A stretch of DNA of 62,279 bases, filler included, from Stramenopiles sp. TOSAG23-3 (taxonomy: Eukaryota): NCBI GenBank assembly GCA_900128585.1. It is 22 parts of 22 records of this genome, joined end to end, with 100 filler letters (N's around TTAATTAATTAA, not from the genome) between each part and the next. Parts side by side here need not be neighbours in the genome. Positions count along the whole stretch, not along the records: positions 36,952 to 39,685 come from LT644621.1; 21 more parts are not named here. One strand, 5' to 3'. Positions within the stretch are counted from its first letter, which is position 1; each line of letters opens with the position of its first letter. Below, in pieces: positions 8,881 through 53,918 of the stretch. Position numbers and translations under genes: made by a program. The notes under the pieces were generated by a model that saw nothing but the letters and a program-made list of their open reading frames with translations, was not told the origin of the DNA and ran no database searches.

Positions 8881-11290
8881 GAAAAGTCCCCGCCAAACGA
8901 CAATTGACCGAGGAAGAAAAAGTAGCGGAACAGCAGCGGAGAAAAAAGGCCAAGGAGAGGCAAAAAGCGGCACGAAAACGGGTTGAGGACGATCGCAGGA
9001 AACTTGAAAAAGAGAAAGAGGAGGCGGCGGTAAAATTGCAGGCATTGATGAGGGGACGGCAGGCACGGAAAGACGCCGACGTCATAAAGAAGAAACGCTC
9101 CATTGCAGAGAAAAAGAAACGGAAGAAGGAAAAGCTAGAGAAGAAGGAACGAAAACGCGTAGAAACAGAGAGGCGCATTCGCCGGGAGCGTTTGAAGGCC
9201 GAACAGGACGAGATTCGCAAAAAGGCGGTGAAGGTAGGCAGCCAGGACGGAAAAAAAAAGATCGGCGTCAAACCAACGCGCAGAAAGTTACGGGAGCTGT
9301 TTAACAAAATAGACGAGAATGGAAATGGGACGCTGGAAAAGGCAGAAGTGATGAATTCCGTGATGCTTGGGAACGACCTCGGGTCCTACATCAGCCCCAA
9401 AATGTTCGTAAAGGAGTTCCAAAGCCTTTTAAAACGGCCTGGCGTGAGAAAACGCGGAGGGAAAATTAATTTTGAGGAATTTTGTAACATATTCGACGTG
9501 GAGGTTCCCCCTGATGAGTTTGTCGACGACATAAAGCCTAAACTGCTGTTGAACGAAAGCGAGGCAAGGAACGTCAGCGATCGCCTGTACAAAGAGAACA
9601 TGCGCCGGGAAGCCCGGATCGAGAAACTCAGGCAGAAGGACGAGGACTTCTACAGCGAGTTGTCCAAGCAGCACAAACCAATGGAATGGCGCGAGCGTAA
9701 AAAAGTAACCGAACGTTTGTACTCTGAAGCAAGTCGGCGGGAAAAAAAGTTAGCCGCGAGAAGGAAAAAAGAACTCGACAGCTACTCTTTCAAGCCTACG
9801 ATCCATTCAGACCGGCAAGAAGCGGTCCGCCCACCGCTGCTCGACCGGATGGCGAATGCCGAGAAAACACGAAAGAAAAAATTGGCCAAGGAAATGGAGG
9901 ATAAGAAAAAAAGAGAAGACAAGGAAATAGAACAGATTATGAGACCAAAAGTTAAAATGTCCAAAGGCAGCCGCAAGTGGCTCATGGACCGCGAGAAACG
10001 AAACACGGGCAAAGCTCCAGGCTCAAAAAACAGGGCATCCCCAAAAGCAGGGCAAACGGGGCGCACCAACCCAACAATGCGCCTGAGTGTACCGCCCCCT
10101 CCAAAGAACAACAAAACGGAGGAGTTGCGGGAAATTTTTGAGTCTTTGGACAAGGACAAAAGTGGCGCCCTGGAGTCGCACGAGATTAGAGGGGTGGTCA
10201 TGCTTCGGAGCGATTTGGGCCAGCACATCTCGCCAAAATTATTTTTGAGAAACTTTGACACCATCTTGAACCTTAAGCGTGACAATGGCATGGCGCCGGG
10301 AATTACCTTTGAGGAATTCGTGTACTTGGTAAACCAAAGCGCGCCTGTGCGCTCCCTTCGCAACGCATCCCCGCGAAATTCGGGGGGGGGGCACAAGCCC
10401 GGTGGCGGCGAAAATCGCGGTACAGCGCTACTCGGACGAAATGGTCCACCAGCTGCTTACCGCTTCCCTGGACGAAAACCCGACAGCGTTGACCAACTTC
10501 AGGCCGGACGAGAAAAAATTGAACCAGGTCGTCATGCGCAGTCCGACAAACGTGCCCCACGCGTCATCGAAACCAGCCCCCGTGCCTCGCATTACGATCA
10601 TCGCTGAGCCGGTAGTTGTGGGCGTCATGCAAGAATCACAGGCAGAACAGGCAGAACCGGCCGAAAACCAGCCGTACGACCCGAACACAACGTACAAAGC
10701 TCGGTCGGACCGCCTGCGAAGGCAGAATATAAAACGGCGAAAACGCCTGCAAGAGAATAGCAAAAAGGCCGCACATTTTGGGCGATCGAAAAGTCGATCC
10801 CCTGTTCGATCCAAGATCGCGAAACGCCAGGTGAAGAAACGGGCAACCAGGAGAAAGGCGGGCGCTAAGCGTGGGCGCCCCCGTGGCGATTCCGACATAT
10901 TTTCCGAGCAAAGCCCGTTCAGCGATTTCTTAGGCAAGACCAGCGATGCAGATGACGACGCGGGCGGTGTTTCCCCCCGGGCGACTGGCGACACGATCAG
11001 CGATGATCTGGCCAACTTTCTCAGCAATCCCTTCGCACCGTCGTCCCCTGTAGAAAACGCGATATTTGACGGCAGCGGCGGGCTTGGTGGTTACGGGAGC
11101 ATGAACAGTGACGGAAGTGCGGGGGACGAAGATTTTGGCCTGCCTTCGGGGCTGATCGATTTGGTATGGACGGGTTCCGACATGCAGAACAACACCGGAA
11201 TCGGAGTGGCGGGCGCAATGAAAAATGCCAACATTGCGTCGAACGACAACGCGCACAACGAAAAGGTTTTGAGGCGAATGCTGCAAGGCC
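8547..11290 (+). CDS. IQ-repeat and EF-hand protein, partial at both ends, apparent frameshift at G10 (10382-10391)
   Basis: 23-aa repeats EREQAAAKIQAVQRGNKERKELK; EF-hand loops DENGNGTLEKAE and DKDKSGALESHE; ORFs 8718-10607 and 10402-11290 switch frame at the G-run. Confidence 0.8.
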
Positions 11291-11390
11291 NNNNNNNNNN
11301 NNNNNNNNNNNNNNNNNNNNNNNNNNNNNNNNNNTTAATTAATTAANNNNNNNNNNNNNNNNNNNNNNNNNNNNNNNNNNNNNNNNNNNN

Positions 11391-11490
11391 CTTCTTTCTT
11401 CTTCTTTCTTCTTCTTTCTTCTTCTTTCTTCTTCTTTCTTCTTTTATCTTCTTCTTTCTCTTCTTCTTCTTTCTTCTTTCTTCTTCTTCT
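11391..11490 (+). repeat. CTT/CTTT pyrimidine microsatellite
   Basis: Repeated CTTCTTTCTT. Confidence 0.9.
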
Positions 11491-11750
11491 CCTCGGGAGG
11501 TTTTTTATTTATTTGATATAGAGAGAGACTATATTTTTATTAAAATTAAGTATTTGTTTCATAGGGTTTATAATATTAATATATGTTGTATATTTTGTAT
11601 TCTATGAAGATACTATCCTTCCTTCCTCTTCTCCTTTGGAACCTTCTTTCCATTTTTCTTCTTCTCTTAAATTAATAACTCCACCGGAAAGGGGGGGATG
11701 TGCTAATAGACACATCATATTTGCTCGTTGCGCTCCTTGTTCCAGCGGCA

Positions 11751-14135
11751 CTACATGACGGAGAAAATGCTTTCTGCTTTGCCAGGTGCATCGTCCGCGT
11801 TTCTTGCACCGTCGACACCGTTCTCTTTGCTCTCCGACCCATCGCCATCCACGGTGGAAAATATGCTTTCGGCGGGGGGATTCCCGGGCGCAGCGGCGGA
11901 GCTCTCGTCTTTGCTCTCCGACACATTCGCCCTGGCGCCCCCCTTGAGCGCGGTTAACATTTGTTTAATGTCGGTTAACAGTTGGTTGTTCATTGCCACG
12001 TTGGCCTCGAGGGTGTCAAGGGACGACCGAAGCCCAGCAGTACCCATTTCTACTACCGACGGGCTGTCCACCAACGGTTGCACCGGTCGGGACCCCGAAC
12101 CTTTCTTTGGCACCTCCAGGGGGTCCGCTCCCAGCGATTCTAGTTTCGTGTTCATTCGTTGCCGCTCTCGCATTTCGTTCAGCAAACTTCGACTCGACGG
12201 GCTTTTCATCTTTAACATCTGGCTCTTCCGCCGGCTCACGCGAATGTTGTGTATCTTGCTCTTCTGGCGTTGGATGAACTCGTTTATGCAGCACCGTCGC
12301 ACAATTTTCCCAACGAGAGGGAGCTGGAACAGCATCTTCCTCAAGTAGCGGTAAATCTCAGGCCCCAGTGGGGTGTCTGGCGTCGCTTTCAAGCGCGCTT
12401 CTGCCTCCGTGTAGGCGTCGCTGATAATGGCAATTATCATGTTTAGCACTACAAAAACTTGGATGCCGACGTAAAGGAAGAAAAAGAGGGGACCGCTGGC
12501 CCAGTCCGCCTCCCGCAACTCGTCGAGGTTGGCATCTCCAAGCAGCGCTAACGCCAGGGTGTACATGCTGTTCGTCAGGGTCCTGTAGCTGTACACTTTG
12601 GTCCCAAACGTGATCATGAACATTGTGCTGAACCCGGACAGGGTGATGGCTTCGACCATCATGAAGCCAAAGACCGCCCGAGTCGACAGAGTGAGGGTCA
12701 AGGTGACGATGGCAAAGGTGTGCGACAGCGACAAGTAGAACACGAGCTTCAGGAAACACAGGCAGCTGTTCATCGACATTACTCTATTCGCCGACTGCAT
12801 TAATTCCGAGTACGAGCGCAGCATTATATACCCGTCCCCGTCCCCGTTTTCCGGGACGGCCGGGGGGAGCTGGAACGCCGCCACGATCCGAACGCCCCAG
12901 ACAAAATAGTACAGGACAATGTTCGTTCTGTTTTGTTGATTGTGGAATTTGTATGTTGTTAGAGAGTTTGTTCATTTCTTTCGTATTCTGTCGTGTACTT
13001 ACATGTGAATCCAGCGGCCGCTCTCTGGGTATTTGAAGTAGTTTCCCACCCCGATCTTACTAATGATACGGCTCTCTATGACGACAAAGTAAAAGTAGTA
13101 GAGAAATACCGCCGTCTGCCCTATTGTGGTGTACATGCTGTACCCGGCCATGAAGGGGAGCGGGACGGTGCTCGCCATGGTGCTGTCGAACGCCGGCACG
13201 GCCCCCCCACTCTGGGTGATCACAAACATCATCCTGCACTGGACGATGACGCCGAGCATCGCGTTGTAAATGTTTACGTCAAAGAAGACTGCTTTCGTGT
13301 GCAGGTCGACGTACCGTCCCTCGATCATCTGCTTCAGCAGGGCCTTTGCCTTTGTCCCGTTCCGATTGGGCAGGACGATGCTGTAGGCCGGGGTAGGAAA
13401 GGACCGGTCGGGCAGCTGGGTCGGGGTGCTCTGGCTGGAGTAGAACGTTGCCCTCTCCTTGGCAGTGTCGGTGCCGTTCCAGCCAGACCAGAGAAACGGT
13501 CGCCGCGGATCCCCGAAGGGCTCGGTCAGCTCTATCTTCCCAACCGAGTACTTGCCGTAGCACTTCTGCTCAACGCGCGAGCCCATGAACGGGCGGTACC
13601 CCCATTTGCATGGCATTGCCCGAACCCGAAACTGCCCGATACGGACGCCGCCCACGACCTTCCCGTAGCCGAGGATAAACCCCGACGTGTCAACGCCGCC
13701 TTCCCCGTCGAAGGTCCCCCCGCCGTAGACGGTCTGGAAGAACGTGCTCTGGGCCCACTGGTACATTTCCTCCACGGTCGCGACGTCCTTCATCGATTTG
13801 CCCCACGTCGGGCTGAAGCGTTCCCCGAACTCCACGTCTACAAACTGGCCCTTTATCCCGTCCACAAAGTAGAACCGGTCTTCGTCTTGGTACGGTATGA
13901 TGGCGGCGATAGTGTACACAACGAGGAAAATCACGTACACTACAATGTCGTGAATTTTCTTCTTGAGCATTCGCTGCCGAACGCGCATCCGTCTGAGCTT
14001 TTCCCGGACTCTCCAACTGTACTGGATGACGCTTGCGGCCCGGTTTTGTACGTCCATCGCGTTCCCCCTGGCCCGGAACGCGGAGCTCAAGATGGCCGTG
14101 TGGAATCGTTCCGTCCCCCCCCCCCCCCCCCCCCC
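11751..14135 (-). CDS. PKD2: Polycystin-2/TRPP cation channel, 5' partial, two exons (14135-13003 and 12927-11751)
   Basis: TOP-domain motifs VGGVRIGQFRV and YVDLHTKAVFFDVNIYN; S5-S6 GPLFFFLY...VLNMIIAIISDAY; splicing out 12928-13002 joins WIH-I-TNIVLYYFVWGVRIV in frame. Confidence 0.88.
12928..13002 (-). other. 75-nt spliceosomal GT-AG intron
   Basis: 5' GTAAGT, branch CTCTAAC, 3' CAG; removal restores the reading frame. Confidence 0.9.
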
Positions 14136-22763: not shown

Positions 22764-23274
22764 GCTTCAAGTCCCGGTGTATAAACTGTTTGCTCCACAT
22801 AAAGTCCAACCCCCGCGCCAAATCGTTCATAAACACCCTCGCGACGTTCTGCCCCAACGCCCCGTTCGCTTGAAGGAACTGGTGAAGGTCCCCCCCGTCG
22901 CAATACTCCATAACTAAAAATATATACTCCATCGAGGACGTCTTGTCGATACCGTACAGGCCGACGATGTTCTCGTGTTTAAAATCCTTCAGGATCTTAA
23001 TCTCGCACTCTAAGTTCTCCCTTAACTTTGCATTGAGCTTTCGGGCCGCAATCGCTTTCACCGCTACTTCCTCCCCAGTCCCATCGTGCACCGCACCGTA
23101 CACTTGTGCAAACGAACCAGAGCCCAGGTGGCGAACGAAACGGTACGGGCCTATCTGCCGTGGAACGTTCGTCGATAAAAAACTAAGCGATGCTCCACGG
23201 TCCTTTCGGACCGGTACTGCGTTGGAAGAAGCCGGACCGTCTTCCCTTGCCGTAGTAGTACTCATCGAATCCAT
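22764..23274 (-). CDS. ATG1: ATG1/ULK-family Ser/Thr kinase, 3' partial
   Basis: LGSGSFAQVY, VAVKAI..KLNAKLRENLECEIKIL, MEYCDGGDL, IHRDLK. Confidence 0.85.
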
Positions 23275-23797
23275 ATTACTATTTGCACTTTTCTCACCAC
23301 TATACTTCTTAACAATTACACGGTGTTTAGACGTATGTTACTACGTACTTCCTAAAACGAATGGTACAATCGATGGAAAGCTTTTGTAGATAGATTGAAT
23401 TGAATTGAGACGGGGTGAAATGGTGGTGTGTTGTGGCGTGTGAGGAATGGAACTCTTGGTTGAGTGCGTGTTCATAATTTATTCAATTTTATATGAAAAC
23501 TGTACATTATAACTAAGAATTAAAATTTTGAATTCCCCAACAACGGCAAGGCTACGACGAGAAGCGGCGGCGACCGGGGGTGCCCTAACTGGACAATTGT
23601 TGAGAATTATAATTAATATAAAGAGAGTTATTAATTTCAAATATATAATGTGAGACAGTTTGGAATGTTTGCAAAAGGTTTCCAAACGAGCCCTTTCTGC
23701 TTTGGCTGTTTGTTCCGTTTTGCTCCGTTTCTATTCATTTGATATTTGTTCTTTTCTTTTTCGTTTTCTTTTTCCTTTCTTTGACCAACCACAAAAC

Positions 23798-25424
23798 ATG
23801 TCGGACCATGCGTCTCATACTTGCTCGGCCCCAGGGAAAGTACTTTTAGCTGGTGGGTACTTGGTGTTGGACCGACCAAACATTGGTATTACAATAGCTA
23901 CGACGTCAAAATTTCACACGACGACAGAATGGGATTCGAAGAAACACCAGAAGGACGATAATGATGAGCATGCAACCCTCCAATCGCTGGCGATTACGGT
24001 AGTGTCCCCTCAGTTTGGAACGACAAACGTGTACAACGTTTTGCCTCCGGGGAAAGAAGACGGGTCAACGCCATACGTAGTCCTTACGGACGTTACTGGC
24101 AGCGAGACCCCGCGGAATAAGTTTGTAGAGACATGCTTGGTGTATGCTATTAGCGCATGCGTGCTGCTCGGGAAACGAGAACATATGTTTGGAACCTCCG
24201 ACGTTAGGATCACCCTACGAGCGGACAATTCGTTTTATTCCCAGCGCGACGAGCTGAAACGACGAGGCCTGCCGTGCACGTCTGGCGCCCTTCGAACCTT
24301 GGAGCCGTTTCGGCCGTTGCAAACGGTAGCAAAGACGGGCCTGGGAAGTTCTGCGGCACTGGTAACGTCGTTTGTCGGTTCGTTTCTGGCATTCATGGGG
24401 TGCGCAGAGCTGCCGTCCGTTGTGTCGGAAGCGGACCGCGTACGGACATCAAGGGATTTGGAACTGGTCCATCGGCTCGCGCAGGCGGCCCATGTCATGG
24501 CCCAGGGGAAAGTTGGAAGTGGGTTTGACGTTTGCTCGGCGTGTTTCGGGAGCAACGTGTACGTCCGTTGCTCGCCGGATATTTTAAAACCAGTGTTGGA
24601 GGAATGCCCGGCCGGGGTCGAGGCGGCAGAGGGGCAGACCGTAGGCCCATTGCTCCACGTCCTGGAGCGGATCGTGGTGGGTGGACAAGGGGCACGGGCG
24701 GAGGGGGACGACGGGGCATCGGTTCAATGGGACCACGGGTCGACCCCGTTTGGTCTTCCAAAACATTTTTGCATGGGGCTTGGGGACATAAGCGCGGGCA
24801 GTTCTACCCCATCTATGGTTCGAAAAGTCAAGGCGTACTTGGCCGCATCGAAAGCGTCGGTTGAAGCCGGGGAGACGCCCATAGACGTTGGCGCGGCCCT
24901 CTGGAACGAGCTTGGGGAGTTGAACGGTTCGATCCGGACGGAGTTTGAAGCGCTCTCCACGGTCTCGGGTGCTCACCCGTTCGTATACAAGCATACCCTT
25001 CACGTGTGCGAAACGGTAAAGTGCACGGAGTGGGGTGGGGAGGGCAATCCCAGCGAGGGCATCGTTGGGTGGATGAGCGATGTCTTAGGGGCCCAAGTGA
25101 CGGTGGACGAGGGGACCCGGTCGCTAGCGGCCCCGCCGCTATCGATGGACGAACGGTTGAGTGTTTCCAAGGGTATTGTCCACGGCCTGTGCCGCCTCCG
25201 GGACATGTTTCAGCGGGCGAGGGCGTGCTTGAAAGAGTTGGGGGATTTGGCAAAGGTTCCCATCGAACCGGAAGAGCAGACGGTCCTGTGCAACCGAACC
25301 CTGTTTGAACTCCCGGGTGTTCTTTCGGTGAGTGTCCCTGGCGCGGGGGGGCACGACGCCATCGTCGCCATTTGCATTGGAAAGGAAAGCTTGAAACAGG
25401 TCGAAACGTTTTGGGCAGAAACGA
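23798..25424 (+). CDS. ERG8: Phosphomevalonate kinase (ERG8/plant GHMP type); 3' end replaced by a chimeric copy of kinase sequence
   Basis: SAPGKVLLAGGYLVL, KTGLGSSAA, AQGKVGSGFDV, VPIEPEEQT, VPGAGGHDA. Confidence 0.93.
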
Positions 25425-25503
25425 GCGAGGGTGTTTATGAACGATTTGGCGCGGGGGTTGGACTTTATGTGGAGCAAACAGTTTATACACCGGGACTTGA
25501 AGC
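25425..25503 (+). repeat. 79-bp exact inverted copy of the contig start (22764-22842)
   Basis: Exact reverse complement; mismatch at base 80. Confidence 0.95.
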
Positions 25504-35975: not shown

Positions 35976-36229
35976 GTTTGTTGGTTTGTTTTGTTTGAGA
36001 GATATAATTATATTTCATATTATAATATCAATCCAATACATTAATATTTATATATATTTAGATTGAGTTTAAAAGAATGAACGGATGAATTTGATGTGTA
36101 TTGGATTTTACACTTTGTGTACTTGTTCCTTCTTTTATCCCACTCGTTGTTGTTTCTTTTCATTTCTAAAAGTTTGGTTTATTGCGGTTTCGCTTCCCCT
36201 TTCCCTTCCTCCCTTCCCACCGTTTTCTT

Positions 36230-36851
36230 ATGTCAGACGAAGAGGCTGGCCTGGCCTCGCTGCCGCTCGAGGACGCCCTTGGAGAGTCTACAATAGACGA
36301 GGCGAAGATGTTGGCCGAGCGGAAGAAGATCGATGCGATGATCGAAAGCATAGGGACGTTCGACTTTGACGACATAGACTTTGGGGACTTTAGCGACGAG
36401 GTGCAGGATGCCTTGAACGAGCTTTTCCCGTCCGACGACCCCCTGGACCAGCCCGACTTCGACCCGATCGCGTACTTGAACGAGCAGTTCCCGGACGAAG
36501 CGTCGCTCTCACGGGCGGACACGTTCTTGGCAAACTTGGACGCTGACATAGCGAAAACAAACAAAGAGATATCGGACATCATACACACCCAGGCGACGAC
36601 GAGCCAGCGGGCCCACGCGGAAGTGAAGGAAGCGAAGCAGTCCGTGAAGCAGCTGTACGTAAAGGTGAAGGACATAAAGAGCAAGGCCGAGGAGAGCGAG
36701 GCGATGGTGGAAGAGATATGCAAGGACATCAAGCAGTTGGACAACGCGAAGACCAACCTGCAAACGACCATCACGACGCTGAAGCGCCTTCACATGCTGG
36801 TGACCGCGGTGGACCAGCTCGAGTACATGGCGGAGCGGCGGCAGTACCGGG
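36230..36851 (+). CDS. VPS53: GARP complex subunit Vps53, 3' partial
   Basis: DPLDQPDFDPIAYLNEQFP, DIKQLDNAKTNLQTTITTLKRLHML. Confidence 0.95.
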
Positions 36852-37251
36852 NNNNNNNNNNNNNNNNNNNNNNNNNNNNNNNNNNNNNNNNNNNNTTAAT
36901 TAATTAANNNNNNNNNNNNNNNNNNNNNNNNNNNNNNNNNNNNNNNNNNNNCTTTTTTTGTTGTTGTTGGAGGATGAAAAAAAGATATTTGTTGTTAGCT
37001 CATAATAGTGTGTTGTAGGAGGAGGTAGGAAATAAAAAAAATACCGTAATAATAAATTCCTATATAATTATCGACACCCCATCTGTTGAGATATTACCTG
37101 TATCTCTGGTGGGGTTTGATTGTTGTGTCAACGCAGAACATCCGCACCCCGACGTGCGCATTGGAAAAAAATTGTAAAGAGTTATACTCTCTATTCAGTG
37201 AAGTTTCCCCAACGACTTTAAGAACCGAGCATACGAAACTATTTAGAGACA

Positions 37252-39303
37252 ATGGAAGTACCACAGAAAGGGCAAAGCATATTTCTCTTTTGGGTTAATG
37301 CCGACGATCAACTTCAGAACAGCTGGCTCTCTGGAAGGGTGCTTAGTAACCGCCAAGCCAAAACTGGTTTATTTAAAGTGTCTTTAAAACTGCCTGGCGA
37401 TGGCAGCATTATTACAAGGTTGATAGATTTCTGCAGCCCTCACATGCGACCATTTTGGAAAATTGCACCCCCTGGCGGAGTAGTTGCACCAGAGTCAGAC
37501 GAAGGTATTGTTAATTGGCTATGCTGTGACATTGCGAGCTGTCAGAAGTGGCACCAGCTGCCTGTAGGACTTGGACCTGCTAGTTTTACAAGCGAGAAGT
37601 TCACATGCGCTGGGGCTATTTGGGACGCCAAGAGAAATGCCGAGTGCGACAGTGTAAGCAAGAAAAATGCAAGTGAACGCGCAAGTAAGAACAGTGCTCC
37701 AGTCGTTTTGAGTGCCTATGAGAAAGAACGGGAATTGAACGTTTTACAGAACAGAGCGTTTTTGAAAGCTTTAATGCCAGAAGGTGGTTCGTCCCTGATG
37801 GCCAGTAGCATTACCCAGAACTTGCACACCAGTGTTGCCGAAAAGAAAAGAAAACGCGATAGGGACAACACTACCGCTTTGGTGCCAGTGCGGTGGAGTA
37901 GCAGAGGCATGGTTGAAAAGAATGCGAAATGGGAGCCCGCAGACTTTACAGTCAAGAAAAAGAGAAACCCACGGCGGGATTGCCACGTAACGTTTGTGGG
38001 AGCTTTGGGTCCAAGGGGCAGCGCCACCTTTCAGAAAGGATCTAAAATGACAATTGAGTGGGAAATGGATGATCCTAGAAGCGCCAGGGGAGCGTATTTA
38101 TACGTAGGCCAGAAACACCGTCGCGTTGACGACATTTACGTTGTTTGCCCAAGCGTCGACGCAGGCGTTGCGAACCGAATGAGCTTCGATTTTGTCATGC
38201 CGTTGCATCTCGCCCCTGGCAAAGAATATTTCATAGAAATGGGAAACAACAGGCCGCGAATTTTTGGCCAATCGCGCTTATTTACCATCGAAGACCCTGT
38301 TGGAATGTTCTTGGAAAGTGATGTTGGTGTATGGTGCTGTGGATGCAACCTTACAAGGCATTATGTGGGTAGAAAAGGCTATAAAGGCTCTTGGATTCAG
38401 TGCGAGACTTGTCAGGGATGGCAGCATGAAGATTGTTGCATGCCATCAATGGTGAAAAAGGTTTCATTTGCATGCAAATATTGTCGGGTGGAAGCGTCTT
38501 CTTTCTCTGCTCTCCCACCGCTTCAAAATGAGACTCCAAGTCGACCACCGAAAAAGAAGGACGGGGCCCAAATGGAAACACGACCAGGCGGGCACCTTTC
38601 CGTAGAAACACCGAGCCAGAAAAGGACGCGCTTTAACGACCAGAAAAAAATGCTGACGGGAATCCTCGCCATGATATCAAAAACGGCAAAGTATAGACGG
38701 ATTTCTTCGAAATTGTGCAGCACGCCTAAGCACGTGTCTGTGTTCATTAGGCAAATTGTGGAATCGTACGGTCTTGTGGAATCTAAACATAGATTAATTG
38801 ACTTGGGAGCAGGCCATGGATCGCTGACAAATGAACTTCCCGCAGGCACCGTTGCAGTCGAAAAACTAGAAAATCGGTACGAAAAAGGAAAATCTCGGGT
38901 GCCGCACGCTACTTGGATGAACGCCGATGCTTTTGGGGACAGCTTTCTGAAGTACGTTATTGACAACAAGCGTTCATTTGATTTCGTCATCAGCAATCCA
39001 GATTTCGAGGTTGCGTTTCAGACTCTTTTCATTGCCATGTACTTGCTGAAGGAAGGGTCAAAAATGATATTTTTGTTGCCTTCTGACTTTTTTGAAGCAA
39101 GCCCAGCTCGGATGAGAGTCTACAAAATTCTCAATTGTAGAATTGAGAAAGAGTATAAACTGGGCCACCTGGCATTTTACGAAGACAATCGAAGCGCAGA
39201 AAAACTCAGCACAGATAGCATTTTCATAATTACACACGGCCGGTCTCCAAAGTACGAGTACACGGTGATGAATTCTAGGCTTGCAGGCATGTTGAAAACG
39301 TAA
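37252..39303 (+). CDS. Tudor-like + CW zinc finger + PHD finger + amino-(N6A/N4C) methyltransferase fusion
   Basis: CW: WLCCDIASCQKWHQL..FTC..W..C; PHD: WCCGC..WIQCETCQGWQHEDC..FACKYC; MTase: STP, LIDLGAGHG, VAVE, ADAF, FDFVISNPDF, FLLPSDF. Confidence 0.85.
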   Translation: MEVPQKGQSIFLFWVNADDQLQNSWLSGRVLSNRQAKTGLFKVSLKLPGDGSIITRLIDFCSPHMRPFWKIAPPGGVVAPESDEGIVNWLCCDIASCQKWHQLPVGLGPASFTSEKFTCAGAIWDAKRNAECDSVSKKNASERASKNSAPVVLSAYEKERELNVLQNRAFLKALMPEGGSSLMASSITQNLHTSVAEKKRKRDRDNTTALVPVRWSSRGMVEKNAKWEPADFTVKKKRNPRRDCHVTFVGALGPRGSATFQKGSKMTIEWEMDDPRSARGAYLYVGQKHRRVDDIYVVCPSVDAGVANRMSFDFVMPLHLAPGKEYFIEMGNNRPRIFGQSRLFTIEDPVGMFLESDVGVWCCGCNLTRHYVGRKGYKGSWIQCETCQGWQHEDCCMPSMVKKVSFACKYCRVEASSFSALPPLQNETPSRPPKKKDGAQMETRPGGHLSVETPSQKRTRFNDQKKMLTGILAMISKTAKYRRISSKLCSTPKHVSVFIRQIVESYGLVESKHRLIDLGAGHGSLTNELPAGTVAVEKLENRYEKGKSRVPHATWMNADAFGDSFLKYVIDNKRSFDFVISNPDFEVAFQTLFIAMYLLKEGSKMIFLLPSDFFEASPARMRVYKILNCRIEKEYKLGHLAFYEDNRSAEKLSTDSIFIITHGRSPKYEYTVMNSRLAGMLKT

Positions 39304-39785
39304 ACAATCCCGAAAGGAGTTGAGGAAAGACATATTGCCACAAACCATATTACTGGCCGAGTTTAAATAGAATTTAGGTTTTTTATTAGTTACTATTTAA
39401 AGTTTAGGAATTGCAAGTATATGGAGGAACCAAGGAGGGGATTGAGCTTTGGAGTGGGCGGTACGGGGGCTCACCCCCGTCAACTCTCGCGCCCGGCAAA
39501 AAATACATTATTATAAATAACATACCTAAATAGAATCAAAAACAATTTTTATTAATTTTTTTCCAAAAACTTTTTGCGTCTTAAAACGGTCATTTTAAGG
39601 GTAAGTAAATATATACACACAGCACTAAAAAAAGAATCAACTTTGTTTCAATGTACCAACAACAAGTGTTCTTTCGCAATTGTTTNNNNNNNNNNNNNNN
39701 NNNNNNNNNNNNNNNNNNNNNNNNNNNNNTTAATTAATTAANNNNNNNNNNNNNNNNNNNNNNNNNNNNNNNNNNNNNNNNNNNN

Positions 39786-40791
39786 ACTTGTAATCTTTGC
39801 TGACGCAAGTATTTGCTGGAACTTTCGCTTGGGCTCTGCTATTCAAGTCCTTATTTTCTGGAACTGCTGAGAGTTCGTACCGATTCCATGTACAAGCGCC
39901 AGCGCTGCGGCAAATTGTCTCGGAATTTAATACACTACAGTCCTTTTTATAATCTTCATAATCTTTGCCCGTTAAAAAAATTGCCCAAGCAGCTCTTGTG
40001 TATGTTTTAGTGTTCGTTGTGATGCACTCGGGGGCAGCACGGGTACGGTAATACAGACTGTCGTCCATTCCTTGGCACGTTTTCTGTTCAAATCTGTTGA
40101 CGTTGAACGCCAGTAAGTTAGCTTTGTTTGTTATTAAAAACAGAGTTGGGATTACAGCAATTACCAGAATCATCTTTTGCTTCGACCACTTAAAACTGGC
40201 TAAGAGTGAGAGAATGCCGGAAAAAAGAGCAAAGAAGCTCATAAAAGTTATGTTTCTCTCGAACAGTGGTCGAAAATGGGATCCAAGAGACGGTCTGAGT
40301 AAAACCGACTCGTTTTTAAAGTAGTTTCCCGCATATTCTTGTCCTGATACGCTTTTGCGTATATAATGTGCATTGCTGTCGTAATTTTGCCATATTGAAA
40401 ACGGATTTGTTTGGTCACATTGTCCCTTGAAGACCCCTTTTGCCTTTTTACATTTTGTATCTTTGTCCTCTTCAATTAGCCTCTGGTCGTTCTCGTTAAA
40501 GGCCATGCAATATTTGTAACTGGTGTTTTGATAAGTAGGCGACATAGGGGTATTCAATTCAATAGCCAAAGGATCAAAGCTTCTTACAGGATATATTCCA
40601 CCTTTGTAATCACTGGGACTGGTCATTTTCCCCCCATATAAAAAGAGAGAAGATGGCATATGCCAAAACCCAACCCCACCCCCAAGAAGACAGCAGAAAG
40701 CAAGTATCCCAAAAAGGCAATTGCATAATCCAAGAACTATGGGAACCCACTTGTTCCTGAATCCCTCTTTCATCGACTCCATTTTTTTCAT
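39786..40791 (-). CDS. Cys-rich membrane protein, paralog 1, 3' partial
   Basis: LAFCCLLGGGVG, CQGMDDSLYY..RAAPECITTNTKTY; homologous to 41529-42516. Confidence 0.75.
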
Positions 40792-41140
40792 TGTGGCTTG
40801 TTTTTACTTTGTTGAATGCTCGGGTACAATTTTCCAAAAACACAAATGATTTTAAAAATGAACAACAGCAGTATATGTGTAATTTACAATTATGTATATG
40901 GTTCCAACAATTTCGATTTGTTTCTATTGTGAATGAATATTAATTCGTACCGTATATAAGTGGAACAGATAGATACCAAGGTACGGAATATATTAGTGTT
41001 AACAAATAATAATTATATAATAAATATTTTATATAATTTTAATATGAATTATTATGAAATGATGACCCTTCTTCTTCCTTCTATTTTCTCTTTCTTCTCT
41101 TGTATCATATTTTATTTTTTATTTTTCATTTATAACGGTA

Positions 41141-41306
41141 AAGAATAGAATAGAATAGAATAGAATAGAATAGTATAGTGATATATTATGTACATTTGAA
41201 GTTAGGTACAACCCCCAACCCCCAACGTTCACATGAGTGGGTAGTCGTCTTGAAGTTACCTCCAACAACCCCCAAACCCCAACGTTCACATGAGTGAGTA
41301 GTCGTC
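41141..41306 (+). repeat. (AGAAT)n microsatellite and an imperfect ~55-bp tandem duplication in the bidirectional intergenic region
   Basis: 41196-41249 vs 41250-41306 share CCCCAACGTTCACATGAGTG.GTAGTCGTC. Confidence 0.85.
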
Positions 41307-41528
41307 GTAGTTTCTGGATGGTGGATTTTACCGGTATAAGAAATTGATTCATTTAAAACAGCATAATGCATTTTATGTGGATTATATAATATTACAATGT
41401 ACATTCTTTACGACATATATATTAACCCCAAAATAATTCAAATAGCCTGTGTTTACATATAATTATTTTTGTTTCCTTTGTTTCTTCATAATTATTTTGT
41501 TGGTGTTATTCATTTGCAACTAATAGCC

Positions 41529-42516
41529 ATGTATCAAAAGGCACAGACAGCAGCGAACCATGCGCACGCGCCAGTAGTCCTGGGTGCGACCGCATGCTGC
41601 TTTGGAACTCTTGCTTTCTGCTTCCTTCTTGGGGGAGGTATTGGGTACTACAACGTCAGCACGAATGAATTATTGTACAGTGGCGTCATGCAAACTCCCT
41701 TTGATTATAAGGGTGAGTTCTACCCTTCACGTATGGTTTTGAACGGAATAGGATATCCTTTTTGGGCGTACGATGACCTCGCCTTCAATGAATCATTTGC
41801 AAAGTGCATTGGGTATGACGAATCACTTTTGATTGAGGCCGACGAAACGACAAAGTGCAAGAGTTCCAAATTGTACACCCCTAAGTGTGATGAAACTCAT
41901 CCAAAAGCCAGCTTGATTTACAGCTCCGCGAGTGGAGCATATGCGAACGCCCAAAGCTGGAAGTGGTCTTGGAAAAATAAGACTTTAGTCCAGGATGAAC
42001 GTAACAAAAAAGGGGCTCCGTTTAGTGCCTCAAAGGCCACAATTGCATGGACCGGCTTGTACGCTCTGTTTGCGGGGATTGTGGCCTTGGCAGCAACCCG
42101 AAGCTGGACAAATCTTAAAATGATTGTCCTGCTGGCGCTTTTGCCTCCCCTTCTCTTAAGTGCTGTCGATATCAACAATGTTATCCAATCGAACTGGGAT
42201 CAGTTCCATAGTTGGGCTGTAAACTGCCAAGGAATGGACGAAAGTGTGTATTACAATACTCGTTCTGCCCCCGATTGCATCACAACGAATAAAAAGACTT
42301 ACGCAAGTTTCCAAATTCAGTTTTTGACGGGGAAGGAATTTGAAAAGTTTGACACTGACTGTGGCCTGCTGAAGACCCAGACGATGTGTTTCGGCGCCTC
42401 CAATGCATGCTCATGGAATCCAATCGAAATCCCAGCGGTTCCAGAAAATAAGGACTTGAATAGCAGAGCCCAAGCGAAAGTTCCAGCAAATACTTGCGTC
42501 AGCAAAGATTACAAGT
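41529..42516 (+). CDS. Cys-rich membrane protein, paralog 2, 3' partial
   Basis: LAFCFLLGGGIG, CQGMDESVYY..RSAPDCITTNKKTY. Confidence 0.75.
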
Positions 42517-43025
42517 NNNNNNNNNNNNNNNNNNNNNNNNNNNNNNNNNNNNNNNNNNNNTTAATTAATTAANNNNNNNNNNNNNNNNNNNNNNNNNNNN
42601 NNNNNNNNNNNNNNNNTATTATCAAAATATCACTCTTTAATCCTACAACTCATACAACTCCCTCTTGTGTGTATGTTAGGAGCAATACAAGATGCTGTAT
42701 GACTGTTACGAAACATTAGTAAATTAGATTAGCTGCTGAAAATAGACTACAAAATCGAATAGGCTGCCATTCAGTATTATTATTGGCATTTCTGTAATTT
42801 GACGAAGTTATGTCTTCTTTAAAAAAAATAGAATTACGAATAAAAATATTAAAAAAATAAATTATTATAATTAAAAAAAAGAGAATAATAAAATCCATAA
42901 TATTGTGGTATTATAATATTCTCAGATTTCAATCCGTGTGGTCGTCGAAGCACTAACATCCTGGTTAATTAATTACTGGTGAGAATGTATTTTTGTTGTA
43001 GATGTTAAAATTTATTTTAAAATGC

Positions 43026-51095: not shown

Positions 51096-51174
51096 ATACA
51101 AGTGGACGCTCAATGTATCGATGATAGCCTCGTTTAAATTCGCCCATATCTATAATTAATATATTTTGTTGAAT
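51096..51174 (+). repeat. 79-bp exact inverted copy of the contig end (53740-53818)
   Basis: Exact reverse complement. Confidence 0.95.
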
Positions 51175-51297
51175 ACTTCGTTGACAAAGATTGATTTGAG
51201 CAGTAACAACATTGGTGCTGAAGGGGCAAAATATGTTGCAGAGGCGTTGAAAGTGAATACTTCGTTGACAGAGGACAATATTATATTAGACGAGTAG
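51169..51297 (+). pseudogene. Fragment of an NLRC3-like LRR gene
   Basis: LNTSLTKIDLSSNNIGAEGAKYVAEALKVNTSLTE, no start codon. Confidence 0.7.
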
Positions 51298-51323
51298 TAC
51301 TAGTTATATATTGTTCTCTCCAT

Positions 51324-53132
51324 CTACTTCTGCACCGCTTCCATGGCGCCCTTCATAACGTAATCCATGTACAAACAGTCTACCTCAATTGTACCCTTTG
51401 CAAGATCTGGTACTTTGAGCCCTGGTACGTCGTCAACAGTGATTTGCTTCCCACCAATGTGGCGTCCGATTACTTCCGTGGCTGACAAAATGCTGCCAGT
51501 TTGACTTACAGGTATCCCTAGCTTCTTCCACTTGTGGGTCGACATCTTCAGGCTCGACAGAGTTTTGTGCCCCTCGTATATGGCGTTAATGCGCTCGTTT
51601 GCAAAATGGTACCTCTCCTCCCCCACTATTCCCGCTTCAAACCCAGACTGTGTCAAGCGCTCGTCGGCATTATCCGACCTCAAATGAAGTCTGTGCTCAG
51701 CCCGGGAGGAAAACATCCGGTATGGTTCGTTTGCACCATTGGTGACGAGATCGTCGATTAGCACCCCGATCATGGCCTCGTCGCGCTTCAAAGTGAACTC
51801 GCGGGGGTCGTCCCCGTGGTGCGCGCGGCTGCCTTTCAGCCTCAATCCCGCGTTGCTTCCTGCAACGATGCCTTGGGCGCCCGCTTCTTCGTAACCAGTT
51901 GTCCCATTTATTTGACCGGCTAAAAACAGGCCTTTCACGCTCTTGGTCTCCAAGGTGTGCCTCAGCGCTCTAGGGTCGACGTAGTCGTACTCTACGGAAT
52001 AACCTGGTCTCACCAATTCAGCACGGCTTAATCCTGGAATGGTTCGCACGACCGAAACTTGCACGTCTTCTGGCAATGACATGGAAATACCATTCGGGTA
52101 CACAAAGCTGGAATCAATACCTTCAGGCTCCAACCAGACGGTGTGCCCAGTGCGATCCGGAAACCGCGCTACTTTCCTGTCGAGCGAAGGGCAATAACGA
52201 GGGCCCGTGCCCTCGCCTTCGTTCGTGTCGTATTTTGGTAACAAATGTTCATTTTGCATGATCAATTGGTGCGTTTCTGGTGTTGTCCTAGTCTGAACGC
52301 AATCGACAAGTGTCTTGCCTTCTTTCAAAAATGTGTAATTCGGGTGGTTAAACAGCGACAAATAAGACATAAATTCGGGCGACTCGTCGCTCTTCTGAAC
52401 TTCGAGTCCTTCGTAATCGATCGTAGCGATGTCTAGGCGCGGAGGAGTTCCCGTGTTCAGGCGTCCCAAGTGGAACCCAAGCCGCTGAAACGTGCTAGCC
52501 AACGCAGTAGTGGGTGGCTCAACCCCGTCTTCAGAACTTCTGCGGAACCGTCCCGCGGGGAAATGTTCGGGCCCCAAATGAATCATGCCTCGCAAAAATG
52601 TGCCGGTAGTCACAACAACGGACTTGGTTGCGATCTCCTGCCCGTCAGATGTTGTGACCCCAGTTATCCGCTTCGGGATGCCCCCGTCCGCAGTACCATC
52701 GTTGGAGAAAACCAAGTCTTCCACCCCAGCTTCGTAAAACATTAAATTAGAGCTAAAATCTGGTGTATTCGTAAGCATGCTTTGAATGGCGCTCCGGTAC
52801 ATGTCCCTGTCAACTTGCACTCGTGGCCCCTGCACCGCCGGCCCCCTGCTTCTGTTCAACAACCGGAAGTGAATAGCAGCTTGGTCGGCTGCTTTCCCCA
52901 TCAACCCGTCAAGTGCGTCAATTTCTCGCACAAGTGTCCCTTTTCCAATCCCACCGATAGCAGGGTTGCACGATAGCTCTCCAACAGTATCCCATTTCTG
53001 CGAAATCAAAAGCGTTTTCGCCCCAGTCCTTGCCGACGCAGCCGCTGCTTCACAACCTGCATGACCACCTCCAATAACGACGACGTCCACGGCAAGCTTC
53101 GAGTCCCCGGCGATGCGCTTCAAAAACTGCAT
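51324..53132 (-). CDS. MTO1: Mitochondrial tRNA U34 modification enzyme MTO1 (MnmG/GidA family); C-terminus looks short
   Basis: [66 protein letters not shown]. Confidence 0.95.
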
Positions 53133-53918
53133 CTCAAAAAATATCTAAATCCTACCACGCCCCTTGCATTCATTCCTCAACGAGTATCTTTGCACGAAAT
53201 AGTGGATTGGAATCATCCTTCAAATGTTTTAATTGACACTTTTCCATTTGCATTGTTTCCTCTTAATCAATCGTTCGTTTTTGTTGTTTTTTTTTTATTA
53301 AATAAATAAAAAAATAATAATAAAAAAAAAAATTTTTTAAAATAATAATTAATTAAAAAAGGTCATCAGCAGTCTAACGCTGTGCTTATGATAACAACTA
53401 TAATTCCAATAATAATATAATACGTAGGACACAGCATTCGTTAGGACTAACATAGTTATCCCTATATAATATATATACTACTTTGTCGTATTCGAATAGC
53501 TTCCATCTTTTTTCTTCTTCTTTCTTCTTCTTCTCAATATTCTCAATCAATCAATAGCTAACACAACAACAACAATGTTTGTTATTTATTCGTCGCCCAC
53601 ATCGAACGAAGGACGAAGGACGACGAAGGAAGAACGAACACACGTCGGATCGGGGACGACTAATAATTAATTTGTTCTTCGCGATGTTCGATTTGGTGGT
53701 GGTAAGTATTATAATGAATGTTTTCAGTGTGATAATTACATTCAACAAAATATATTAATTATAGATATGGGCGAATTTAAACGAGGCTATCATCGATACA
53801 TTGAGCGTCCACTTGTATNNNNNNNNNNNNNNNNNNNNNNNNNNNNNNNNNNNNNNNNNNNNTTAATTAATTAANNNNNNNNNNNNNNNNNNNNNNNNNN
53901 NNNNNNNNNNNNNNNNNN

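Follow-up and report, generated by a model that had tools for sequence, protein, structure and literature searches.

A gene of an uncultured marine unicellular eukaryote encodes a 683-aa protein that we consider a candidate chromatin-tethered DNA N6-adenine methyltransferase, a tentative reading, with catalysis and DNA as substrate both predicted, to which we give a probability of roughly 45%. From N- to C-terminus the protein consists of a beta-barrel, a CW finger, a conserved helix, a Kre9/KNH-type Ig-like domain, a C4HC3 PHD finger and a C-terminal Rossmann amino-methyltransferase (Table 1). In the proposed mechanism the readers (the PHD finger, the CW finger and, weakly, the Agenet/Tudor-like barrel) would dock on histone tails, with the Ig-like domain and a basic linker resembling a nuclear localisation signal also lying in the N-terminal two thirds of the protein. 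The C-terminal 205 residues, a predicted minimal phage-type SAM-dependent amino-methyltransferase (MTase), would then methylate the N6 position of DNA adenine beside nucleosomes with the mark to which the PHD and CW fingers bind, probably H3K4 methylation. Nuclear localisation, the histone mark, activity and substrate are predictions.

The window, by which is meant the whole stretch of DNA analysed (62,279 nucleotides), consists of contigs of ~2.7 kb in series, with spacers N44-TTAATTAATTAA-N44 between them. The target contig occupies positions 36952-39685 of the window, and its sole long ORF is that of the 683-aa protein (37252..39303, plus strand, stop codon included), which is unbroken, has a single exon and is found in one copy only within the window.

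Table 1. Features of the 683-aa protein and its gene, in window positions
Feature	Position	Strand	Residues	Remark
Five-strand beta-barrel, Agenet/Tudor-like (weak)	37273..37464	+	8-71	
CW-type zinc finger	37513..37650	+	88-133	
Helix motif LSxYEKxRxxNVxxNxxxLxxLxP	37708..37779	+	153-176	
Basic patch KKRKR	37843..37857	+	198-202	read from sequence
Kre9/KNH-type Ig-like beta-sandwich	37987..38292	+	246-347	
PHD finger	38326..38490	+	359-413	C4HC3
Long helix leading into MTase	38611..38685	+	454-478	pLDDT 72-88
Minimal seven-strand Rossmann amino-methyltransferase	38686..39300	+	479-683	
Motif X, STP	38719-38727	+	490-492	
Motif I, DLGAGHG	38800-38820	+	517-523	
Motif II, E537	38860-38862	+		
Motif III, D559	38926-38928	+		
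Motif IV, NPDF	38995-39006	+	582-585	SNPDF = 38992-39006, aa 581-585
FLLPSDFF	39070-39093	+	607-614	

A genuine gene in a cellular context

The gene is a genuine, conserved nuclear gene of a cell. Translation bore out the intact ORF described in an earlier, sequence-only reading of this DNA, and the CW finger, the helix, the PHD finger and the STP, DLGAGHG, SNPDF and FLLPSDF motifs each lie where that reading had placed them. Across the alignment the full-length orthologs P0002/P0003, P0004 and P0005 show 49-51% identity, with all domains in common, and P0049, in which the full length is also kept, is 66% identical across the MTase domain. It is highly improbable, and by now largely refuted, that the ORF is a chimera created by assembly or amplification, or that it belongs to a transposon or virus rather than to a cell. 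Amplification-type artefacts do occur in the source assembly, where 79-nt inverted termini were found on three window contigs, but the target contig has no such termini. Furthermore, a 4822-nt metagenome contig from an independent DNA run (X3) covers 36953-39489 with the entire ORF inside, differing from the window by 9 substitutions plus two 3-nt insertions upstream of the ORF, and the architecture is kept in five ortholog lineages at ~50% identity. The sequence-only reading had taken the fusion as a real architecture while naming an amplification chimera as the danger, and both the orthologs and the independent contig speak against a chimera. The stretch, or part of it, is present in 20 of the 24 listed runs, drawn from 14 studies, and all labelled ones are marine or seawater samples.

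The same protein is encoded on a 13.4-kb contig (L001), which has inverted duplicated arms, another feature on the side of an artefact. The neighbours of the gene there are ordinary eukaryotic ORFs, and transposon and viral genes were looked for among them and not found; the genomic context is cellular. A transposon origin might be suspected from the relatives of the MTase domain that lie within Ty3/gypsy Pol proteins (see below), but Pfam shows no reverse transcriptase or integrase domain in the 683-aa protein. For a virus, a viral contig collection was scanned twice, with the full-length ortholog alignment and with a 12-sequence alignment, and returned no relative; these patterns are narrow and do not imply absence, and they lend no support to a giant-virus route.

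Contigs from poly-A/oligo-dT RNA libraries match stretches of the ORF at 99% identity or more, with no splice joint within it; they may derive from carried-over DNA, and those stretches of the ORF with no RNA-contig cover speak neither for nor against expression. One RNA contig has a joint at 39513-39574, 3' of the stop codon, the shorter side of which is only 23 letters.

The N-terminal reader region

The N-terminus had been read as weakly Tudor-like, and the assignment stays weak. The AlphaFold model contains a five-strand barrel (strands 9-14, 24-30, 41-46, 53-58 and 69-71; pLDDT ~80) in which F13, W14, V15, W25, G28, V30, R56 and L57 are invariant among the orthologs, whereas the sequence signature of the family stays weak: Pfam Agenet matches the N-terminus in only 2/5 orthologs (E 0.015), the window's own N-terminal 83 aa submitted alone match 0 Pfam families, and a PDB profile search with the barrel returned 0 matches. 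The CW finger, in the place given to it earlier, is matched by Pfam zf-CW in 5/5 orthologs, the window protein scoring E 4.7e-05 and 23.8 bits, below the 27.5-bit cut-off, and its four Cys and three Trp residues (W89, C92, C97, W100, C119, W124 and C132) are invariant in 5/5 sequences. The next element, the helix LSAYEKERELNVLQNRAFL (aa 153-171), had also been recognised, and nine of its columns (L153, S154, Y156, E157, R160, N163, V164, N167 and L171) are invariant in the orthologs. The model places a helix at 155-174 with low pLDDT, Pfam finds 0 families in this region alone, and residues 2-25 of a relative from Creolimax (P0053) include a similar YExxRxxNIxxN stretch, a weak local match (E 0.14). 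The linker that follows is disordered (pLDDT <50 for aa 174-238) and contains the KKRKR patch, of which K199 and K201 are invariant in the orthologs and which may act as a nuclear-localisation-like signal.

All of the features listed in the sequence-only reading are present, but the list was not complete, as the Kre9/KNH-type Ig-like domain had been overlooked. On aa 237-353 alone Pfam PF10342 scores 28.3 bits (cut-off 24.6 bits; E 3e-06), and it matches 5/5 orthologs; P0049 scores 24.9 bits. The model shows at least 8 strands with pLDDT ~70-80, and the C-terminal part of the domain can be aligned with the Creolimax relative.

The PHD finger that had been proposed proved to be canonical, with the spacing C362-x2-C365-x18-C384-x2-C387-x4-H392-x2-C395-x12-C408-x2-C411, and all eight ligands, together with G359, W361 and W390, are invariant in 12/12 aligned relatives. 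Pfam PHD scores E 0.005 on the window copy (17.2 bits vs a 24-bit cut-off) and E 1.1e-11 (45 bits) on the relative P0051, and a scan of 55 family members detects it in 10, where the MTase domain stands directly after it. Tryptophans W361, immediately preceding the first Cys, and W390, which the His follows two residues later, occupy what we take to be the two aromatic methyl-lysine cage positions of H3K4me3-binding PHD fingers; counting these in its favour, methylated H3K4 is probably the mark read.

The methyltransferase domain

The model of the domain (pLDDT 88.4, pTM 0.87) has the strand order of class I methyltransferases. Its motifs follow one another as X-I-II-III-IV on an unpermuted Rossmann fold, which is the order of the gamma class (M.TaqI/M.EcoKI-type, 'Group 2'), and translation and the modelled strand order together confirm the gamma-type order X-I-IV of the sequence-only reading. 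That reading had also set the enzyme outside MT-A70, in agreement with the unpermuted order, the core of MT-A70 being permuted and of the DPPW type, and with the 6 Pfam families that match the 683-aa protein at E<=1, among which MT-A70 does not appear. Around the lead-in helix M474, Y481 and R483 are invariant in 12 sequences, as are, fully or nearly, T491 and P492. The TP pair recurs in nearly all 103 aligned rows, and TP is set out as a feature of Group 2 N6-MTases in the available text of PMC4738411. At motif IV, N-P-D-F departs from the tetrapeptide (D/N)-P-P-(Y/F/W), with Asp in place of the second Pro.

No other section of the protein is as well conserved as the MTase, with long invariant runs in aa 607-681, and STP, DLGAGHG, SNPDF and FLLPSDFF are invariant among orthologs. 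Basic residues R483, R542, R620, R622, K651, R664 and K667, spread through the domain, are each invariant in 12/12 sequences and would suit a nucleic-acid substrate. The domain ends ~100 residues past motif IV, with just strands 5-7 there, and Pfam finds no MTase-S or TaqI-like C-terminal domain in the 683-aa protein; with no target-recognition domain, target choice would come mainly from the sites on which the readers dock. Among solved structures, the rRNA m6A enzyme METTL5 (6h2u) and the DNA adenine methyltransferases lmo1582 (2f8l), M.TaqI (1aqi) and HsdM (3lkd) are tied as nearest in fold, and the identity of the window domain to METTL5, M.TaqI, type I HsdM and lmo1582 is only 14-20%.

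Phage, retrotransposon and PHD-linked relatives

The MTase family, which is without a Pfam model of its own, has 181 members at E<=1e-3 (HMMER). They are phage and cyanobacterial proteins of ~200 aa, domains at the C-terminal end of Ty3/gypsy Pol, and a clade of eukaryotic PHD-linked proteins. This clade (31 rows, the window protein and the Creolimax fragrantissima member P0053 included) has NPDF in 28/31, the motif II Glu in 31/31 and the motif III Asp in 29/31 rows, and the GxGxG motif is kept. Canonical NPPF is present in 24 of the 27 phage and cyanobacterial rows, and in the 13 retrotransposon rows the third position of motif IV varies freely (NPEF, NPTF, NPQF, NPSY, NPIY, NPRF and others). 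NPDF had been suspected of altering or abolishing activity, a suspicion that the comparison does not support: it is the conserved state of the clade, with motifs II and III kept. Nor is there the decay of motifs I and IV that had been raised as a contrary sign, as both are invariant in orthologs and kept across the clade. The retention of NPDF and of the SAM-binding residues throughout the clade looks like purifying selection on the active site rather than decay; judged from these intact SAM-binding and catalytic motifs, the active site appears preserved.

A non-catalytic role has already been proposed for the MTase-like domains of DIRS1, and the least probable of the readings of function is that the domain is catalytically silent here, the protein being a reader or scaffold in which it merely binds SAM, DNA or a partner. 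The non-canonical NPDF, the free third position among the retrotransposon rows and the negative outcome for a different family of TE-borne adenine methyltransferases in heterologous tests (reported in 10.64898/2026.05.21.726589) can be cited for such a role, but the clade conserves every SAM-contacting motif as well as the Asn, the Pro and the aromatic residue of motif IV, and the long invariant runs fall in this very domain.

Among 37 members, the PHROGs 'DNA methyltransferase' families phrog_3820 and phrog_799 match 35/37 and 28/37, respectively, the window domain matching phrog_3820 at E 1.2e-09, and Pfam detects Eco57I in 11/37 and N6_Mtase in 6/37. The nearest ESM-Atlas clusters are phage proteins of 184-225 aa with Eco57I, MTS or N6_Mtase; the full 683-aa protein gave no usable match in the ESM Atlas. 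Acaryochloris phage A-HIS1 has a homolog that bears the annotation 'putative DNA modification methylase', and a cyanobacterial one (Stenomitos frigidus, locus L004) adjoins two ParB-like genes and a gene for the small subunit of a terminase. The latter locus was found in a genome contig scan with an 8-sequence alignment, and a genome contig scan with P0128 alone gave no match. The 'DNA methyltransferase' labels of these phage proteins come from annotation rather than experiment, which weighs against DNA as the substrate. That the MTase domain came from prokaryotes or phages may reasonably be proposed because its nearest sequence relatives are small phage and cyanobacterial methyltransferases annotated as DNA methyltransferases, and the prokaryotic-type, horizontally derived enzyme of the sequence-only reading is reasonable on the same grounds.

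Of the 55 proteins scanned, 13 are Ty3/gypsy integrase or Pol proteins that end in this domain, a link absent from the sequence-only reading, and a route via retrotransposons is therefore an alternative to direct horizontal transfer. Because the retroelement rows are scattered over basal branches of poor support (13 rows require 12 changes, with 206/500 shuffles as low), no claim is made on the direction of transfer between retrotransposon and host.

Substrate and proposed function

The relatives point to DNA as the substrate, through the PHROGs, ESM-Atlas and Pfam assignments, the A-HIS1 annotation and the terminase and ParB-like neighbours, and both eukaryotic settings of the domain, after a PHD finger and in Ty3/gypsy integrase or Pol, are DNA or chromatin settings. 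In amino-methyltransferases an Asn as first residue of motif IV is adenine-type and a Ser 4mC-type, and 4mC is less likely than 6mA, since the first residue here is Asn. Against DNA stand the departure of motif IV from the canonical (D/N)PP(Y/F/W), the scores of the window copies of CW, PHD and Agenet, all below the Pfam cut-offs, and the fact that characterised minimal amino-methyltransferases without a target-recognition domain are mostly RNA enzymes. Furthermore, eukaryotes converted acquired DNA adenine methyltransferases to RNA methylases at least 4-5 times, according to the available text of PMC4738411, and retrotransposon DAM domains, of another family, gave no gain of 6mA in E. coli in the tests described in 10.64898/2026.05.21.726589. 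In the foremost rival, which we consider unlikely, the protein would be a chromatin-associated RNA N6-adenine methyltransferase, brought by its readers to transcribed chromatin and acting there on nascent or chromatin-bound RNA, or else acting on rRNA as METTL5 does.

Less likely again is a Rossmann-fold protein methyltransferase similar to HemK/N6AMT1, acting on a Lys or Gln nitrogen of histones or other chromatin proteins, with the readers positioning it on the substrate nucleosome. The nearest sequence relatives are phage methyltransferases, not HemK, the seven invariant Arg and Lys residues would fit a nucleic acid, and it is hard to see which protein a methyltransferase joined to a retrotransposon integrase would modify.

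Beyond the core reading of a chromatin-tethered DNA N6-adenine methyltransferase lies a larger proposal, which we regard as somewhat unlikely as a whole: the protein would be a 6mA writer independent of AMT1 and guided by H3K4 methylation, its catalytic domain, once in eukaryotes from a phage source, would have been exchanged between Ty3/gypsy integrase fusions and PHD-finger genes of the host, and P0053 would contribute to the overlap of 6mA and H3K4me3 in Creolimax fragrantissima, where 6mA has been reported to overlap H3K4me3 domains tightly.

Significance

The means by which unicellular eukaryotes place 6mA beside nucleosomes marked with H3K4me3 still await an explanation. The available text of a 2025 survey attributes 6mA to the MT-A70 enzyme AMT1, and the possible link to H3K4me3 there is only a PHD finger in the partner subunit of ichthyosporeans (PMC12695648). 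The family described here joins a PHD finger, and in the window lineage a CW finger, on one polypeptide to a different, phage-type amino-methyltransferase, and the idea is directly testable because Creolimax, a culturable ichthyosporean, has a family member. Chromoviruses carry a chromodomain at the C-terminus of Ty3/gypsy Pol, and the placement of the MTase domain in Ty3/gypsy Pol would make it a second amino-methyltransferase domain family on LTR retrotransposons, beside DAM, with possible exchange between transposons and host chromatin genes. Even with RNA or a histone as its substrate, the protein would stand out among writers, its catalytic loop being the variant NPDF.

Comparison with known systems

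Among the solved relatives of the fold, M.TaqI, HsdM and lmo1582 carry or recruit a target-recognition domain or subunit, whereas the window MTase is without one; METTL5 is said to need TRMT112. The N4CMT of bdelloid rotifers, which carries a chromodomain fusion, is an N4-cytosine enzyme of an animal, whereas the window protein has an Asn-first, adenine-type motif IV and PHD and CW fingers, and is from a protist. The two are alike in that N4CMT is a bacterial amino-methyltransferase acquired horizontally and put to use as a eukaryotic epigenetic writer (PMC8885841), as would be the case here. We weighed oomycete DAMT (PF10237) as a possible relative but set it aside, as it belongs to a different Pfam family (PMC6211444) that is not among the matches of the window protein.

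The chlorophyte-type Dam proteins (Group 2 clade 2) combine BMB/PWWP, PHD, N6-MTase and ZfCW domains, and Iyer, Zhang and Aravind (2016, PMC4738411) proposed that such fusions link 6mA in DNA to histone marks. As in the window protein, PHD and CW fingers of a unicellular eukaryote are joined to an adenine methyltransferase of phage or cyanobacterial ancestry. However, the motifs given for the chlorophyte-type domain are WYTP...DLDP...NPP[FY], with no GxGxG, whereas the window domain has DLGAGHG and NPDF, and the window protein further differs in its N-terminal CW finger, the absence of PWWP and the extra Ig-like domain. Pfam Dam (PF05869) does not match the window protein, and it matches 2/37 family members (E 0.0032). 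The strings NPDFE and SNPDF have 0 occurrences in the available supplement text of PMC4738411, in which many alignment lines are incomplete, and no published description of the MTase family was found in a comparison that covered known systems apart from the Emiliania phage-derived Group 2 clade 4 of that paper.

DAM-LTR and DIRS elements are Ty3/gypsy-like and other protist retrotransposons that carry a prokaryote-type adenine methyltransferase and are tied to 6mA-associated chromatin. The preprint on them (10.64898/2026.05.21.726589) screened for the DAM domain, in which the Asn-Pro-Pro triplet is described as near-universal and an N-terminal catalytic subdomain as absent. The window gene, by comparison, is a cellular PHD-linked gene and no transposon, and 0/13 of its retroelement-linked relatives match Pfam Dam at E<=1e-3, their matches being MTS, Methyltransf_25 and Methyltransf_31. 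The phrog_3820/phrog_799, A-HIS1 and Stenomitos frigidus proteins belong to the same HMMER family as the window MTase and share its length and order of secondary structure, but these small phage and cyanobacterial methyltransferases, unlike the window protein, are standalone proteins of ~200 aa with DDWETP and NPPF, lack readers and are encoded in prophage-like loci. MT-A70, the chlorophyte-type Dam fusions and the recently reported retrotransposon DAM domains are all distinct from the MTase family described here.

Authenticity of the gene

Rather than a single locus, the window strings together short contigs, each 2.72-2.75 kb long and apparently ordered by length; the spacers between these contigs read N44-TTAATTAATTAA-N44. 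Three contigs (22764-25503, 39786-42516 and 51096-53818) each carry the same 79 bases, inverted, at their two ends, a usual mark of hairpin or palindrome artefacts from amplification or assembly; no such ends occur on the target contig, which bears the sole copy of the ORF within the window. On one contig, divergent paralogous ORFs of 353 and 367 aa face outward (39730-40791, minus strand; 41469-42572, plus strand). Their N-terminal segments are hydrophobic and their bodies rich in Cys; their C-terminal stretch is identical because the contig has inverted ends. An ORF at 36182-36851 (plus strand), acidic and rich in coiled coil, runs off the end of the contig that adjoins the target contig in the window.

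The sequence-only reading had allowed that the fusion might be an amplification chimera. When 5.8 billion proteins were searched through a word index, the identical protein came up with four more full-length clusters, P0002/P0003 (798 aa), P0004 (684 aa) and P0005 (733 aa). Identity to these over the alignment is 49-51%, and every domain contains long stretches of invariant residues. The same gene lies on L001, a 13.4-kb contig, flanked by ordinary eukaryotic ORFs. In L001 the segments 171-2759 and 10596-13184 form inverted arms, and the contig is probably a chimeric palindrome whose only unique part is the middle, which holds the gene; the arms are perfect duplicates, and in each an 862-aa ORF precedes one of 136 aa. 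Words of the target contig are present in 20 of the 24 runs listed, from 14 studies, marine or seawater wherever labelled (two of the 20 are flagged as possible sources). Four runs were compared, and in one of them, the independent DNA run X3, a single 4822-nt contig spans 36953-39489; it differs by nine substitutions and, upstream of the ORF, by two 3-nt insertions. Three RNA libraries (with poly-A or oligo-dT selection in two cases) contain contigs that match parts of the ORF at 99% identity or more, and no joints inside the ORF were found in the run contigs compared. Expression is likely, with the proviso that RNA libraries can contain DNA. The gene is thus real rather than chimeric, and an artefact or mobile-element gene is a very remote explanation, given the full-length orthologs, the unique middle of L001 and the X3 contig.

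Domain architecture

Every landmark of the sequence-only reading was found where that reading had placed it.

Features of the target contig and of the 683-aa protein
Feature	Position	Strand	Basis or remark
Target contig	36952-39685		bears the ORF
ORF	37252..39303	+	intact, 683 aa
Five-strand barrel	aa 8-71		AlphaFold
zf-CW	aa 88-133		Pfam, E 4.7e-05, under cut-off
Small CW fold	between barrel and aa 155 helix		AlphaFold
Helix	aa 155-174		AlphaFold
Disordered basic linker	aa 174-238		AlphaFold
Beta-sandwich	aa 246-347		AlphaFold
Kre9/KNH-like Ig domain	aa 254-346		Pfam, full-length scan
PHD	after beta-sandwich, before linker 418-450		AlphaFold
Disordered linker	aa 418-450		AlphaFold
Long helix	aa 454-478		AlphaFold
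MTase	C-terminal, after long helix 454-478		AlphaFold

The full-length AlphaFold model has a mean pLDDT of 67. 'Tudor-like' stays a weak label for the barrel, because a profile search of it against the PDB was empty. Neither the N-terminal 83 aa nor the helix region, each scanned alone, gave a Pfam match. The Ig-like domain by itself scores 28.3 bits against a cut-off of 24.6. Pfam matches to PHD, MTS, Eco57I and RrnaAD are weak in the window protein; among five orthologs, zf-CW, Kre9_KNH and MTS are matched in all, RrnaAD and PHD in three, and Agenet in two. Despite an E-value of only 0.005 for the PHD region scanned by itself, the finger is canonical by its pattern: none of its eight zinc-ligand positions varies, nor do W361 and W390, in any of the 12 aligned relatives. 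The helix motif [LS]xYExxRxxN[VI]xxNxxxLxxL (37708-37779) belongs to no Pfam family, is invariant in five orthologs, and recurs at the extreme N-terminus (residues 2-25) of P0053, the Creolimax relative.

Fold and catalytic motifs of the methyltransferase

The MTase domain is modelled confidently (pLDDT 88.4, pTM 0.87), and Foldseek ranks highest a Listeria 'MTS' protein, the tRNA m6A37 enzyme TrmM, type I HsdM and M.BseCI; the modelled fold is therefore that of the N6-adenine amino-MTases, and does not tell DNA enzymes from RNA enzymes.

The domain was hit in 153 sequences; the 103 of these that span 150 or more profile positions went into a quick maximum-likelihood tree with SH-aLRT support, and the 50 fragments were dropped. 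One clade (support 99) unites 27 standalone proteins of ~200 aa, 24 of which have NPPF at motif IV. The window protein falls within a six-row clade (support 99) nested in a 31-row clade (support 91), and the retroelement rows are scattered over unresolved basal branches. The sequence-only reading had feared that NPDF might alter or abolish activity, and had named decayed motifs in orthologs as evidence that would count against it. Within the 31-row clade NPDF is kept in 28, the motif II Glu in all 31 and the motif III Asp in 29, so that NPDF is a derived state under conservation rather than a product of decay; the third position of motif IV is variable in the 13 retroelement rows. A non-catalytic role, to which the variant loop might point, is improbable given this conservation, and ranks behind activity on RNA or protein.

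Members and genomic homes of the family

With aa 479-683 as the query, phmmer found 181 proteins at E<=1e-3 among 1.84 billion representatives; 94 of them pass at E<=1e-10 and 26 pass at E<=1e-30. No Pfam model is dedicated to the family: 37 aligned members match MTS (20), Eco57I (11), N6_Mtase (6) and RrnaAD (5), and, among PHROGs labelled 'DNA methyltransferase', phrog_3820 (35/37) and phrog_799 (28/37). In the ESM Atlas, the nearest clusters consist of phage proteins 184-225 aa long that bear Eco57I, MTS or N6_Mtase.

The standalone clade consists of prokaryotic or phage-like proteins. Its member P0128 is 33% identical (E 1e-18) to an Acaryochloris phage A-HIS1 protein annotated 'putative DNA modification methylase', and a search with an eight-member alignment found a homolog (40% identity) on the chromosome of a cyanobacterium, Stenomitos frigidus, next to two ParB-like genes and the gene for a small terminase subunit. 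The surrounding stretch (L004, 1-12576) is prophage-like, also has a glucosyltransferase-like gene (phrog_842), and suggests a phage DNA-modification module. P0053, of the eukaryotic clade, is CFRG1341T1 of Creolimax fragrantissima in EukProt. It is 32% identical to the window protein over 378 columns (E 2e-66), with the PHD finger, linker helix and MTase in common as well as the last part of the Ig-like domain; it has an N-terminal YExxRxxNI-type stretch, and lacks the barrel and CW finger.

Pfam was scanned in 55 of 150 listed hits, chosen as multi-domain-length proteins plus a few short ones. A PHD finger lies just upstream of the MTase in 10, and retroviral-type integrase, Tf2-type SH3 or reverse-transcriptase domains lie upstream in 13; none of the 55 matches Dam or MT-A70 at E<=1e-3. 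Among these 13, P0080, P0135 and P0141 are complete RT-RNase H-integrase-MTase polyproteins, in which the MTase comes last, at the very C-terminus. Their Pol is of Ty3/gypsy type (RT, RNase H, integrase, Tf2-type SH3), and the same group includes P0096, P0105, P0113, P0115, P0116 and P0121. Chromoviruses carry a chromodomain at this C-terminal place of Pol.

Proposed function

The N-terminal part is reader-rich, the SAM-binding site and N-P-x-F loop are intact, and there is no target-recognition domain; relatives of the MTase occur in phage DNA-handling loci and on integrases. We propose, at a probability of roughly 45%, that the protein would enter the nucleus via a KKRKR patch, dock through its PHD and CW fingers on methylated H3K4, and methylate adenine N6 of nearby DNA with little sequence preference. 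The aromatic positions W361/W390 (PHD) and W89/W100/W124 (CW) would fit the known cages. Methylation of RNA to m6A is a less probable alternative, and methylation of histones or other proteins, of the HemK/N6AMT1 kind, less probable again.

Comparison with known systems

The interpretation offered by the sequence-only reading is supported in part. By its predicted domains, the window protein belongs to a kind already known, the reader-fused, prokaryote-derived amino-MTase. Iyer et al. (PMC4738411), in the portion available, count at least 13 eukaryotic acquisitions of adenine MTases, several fused to chromatin readers. Nearest in concept there is the chlorophyte-type Dam (BMB/PWWP + PHD + MTase + ZfCW), whose MTase differs in family, being of the WYTP/DLDP/NPPY type. 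In the accessible text of the other sources, the DAM-carrying retrotransposons of a 2026 preprint have that same DAM type, a 2025 6mA survey (PMC12695648) covers MT-A70 enzymes only, and oomycete DAMTs are PF10237 (PMC6211444). Because the retroelement MTases described here match no Pfam Dam, they look like a second candidate amino-MTase family on LTR retrotransposons, beside that of the preprint. In the literature searched, no PHD-linked MTS/Eco57I-like MTase with NPDF is described, although the 'Emiliania, phage-derived' clade of Iyer et al. might include a mention, and the family appears undescribed. It has a variant catalytic loop, NPDF, and an unexpected link to retrotransposons.
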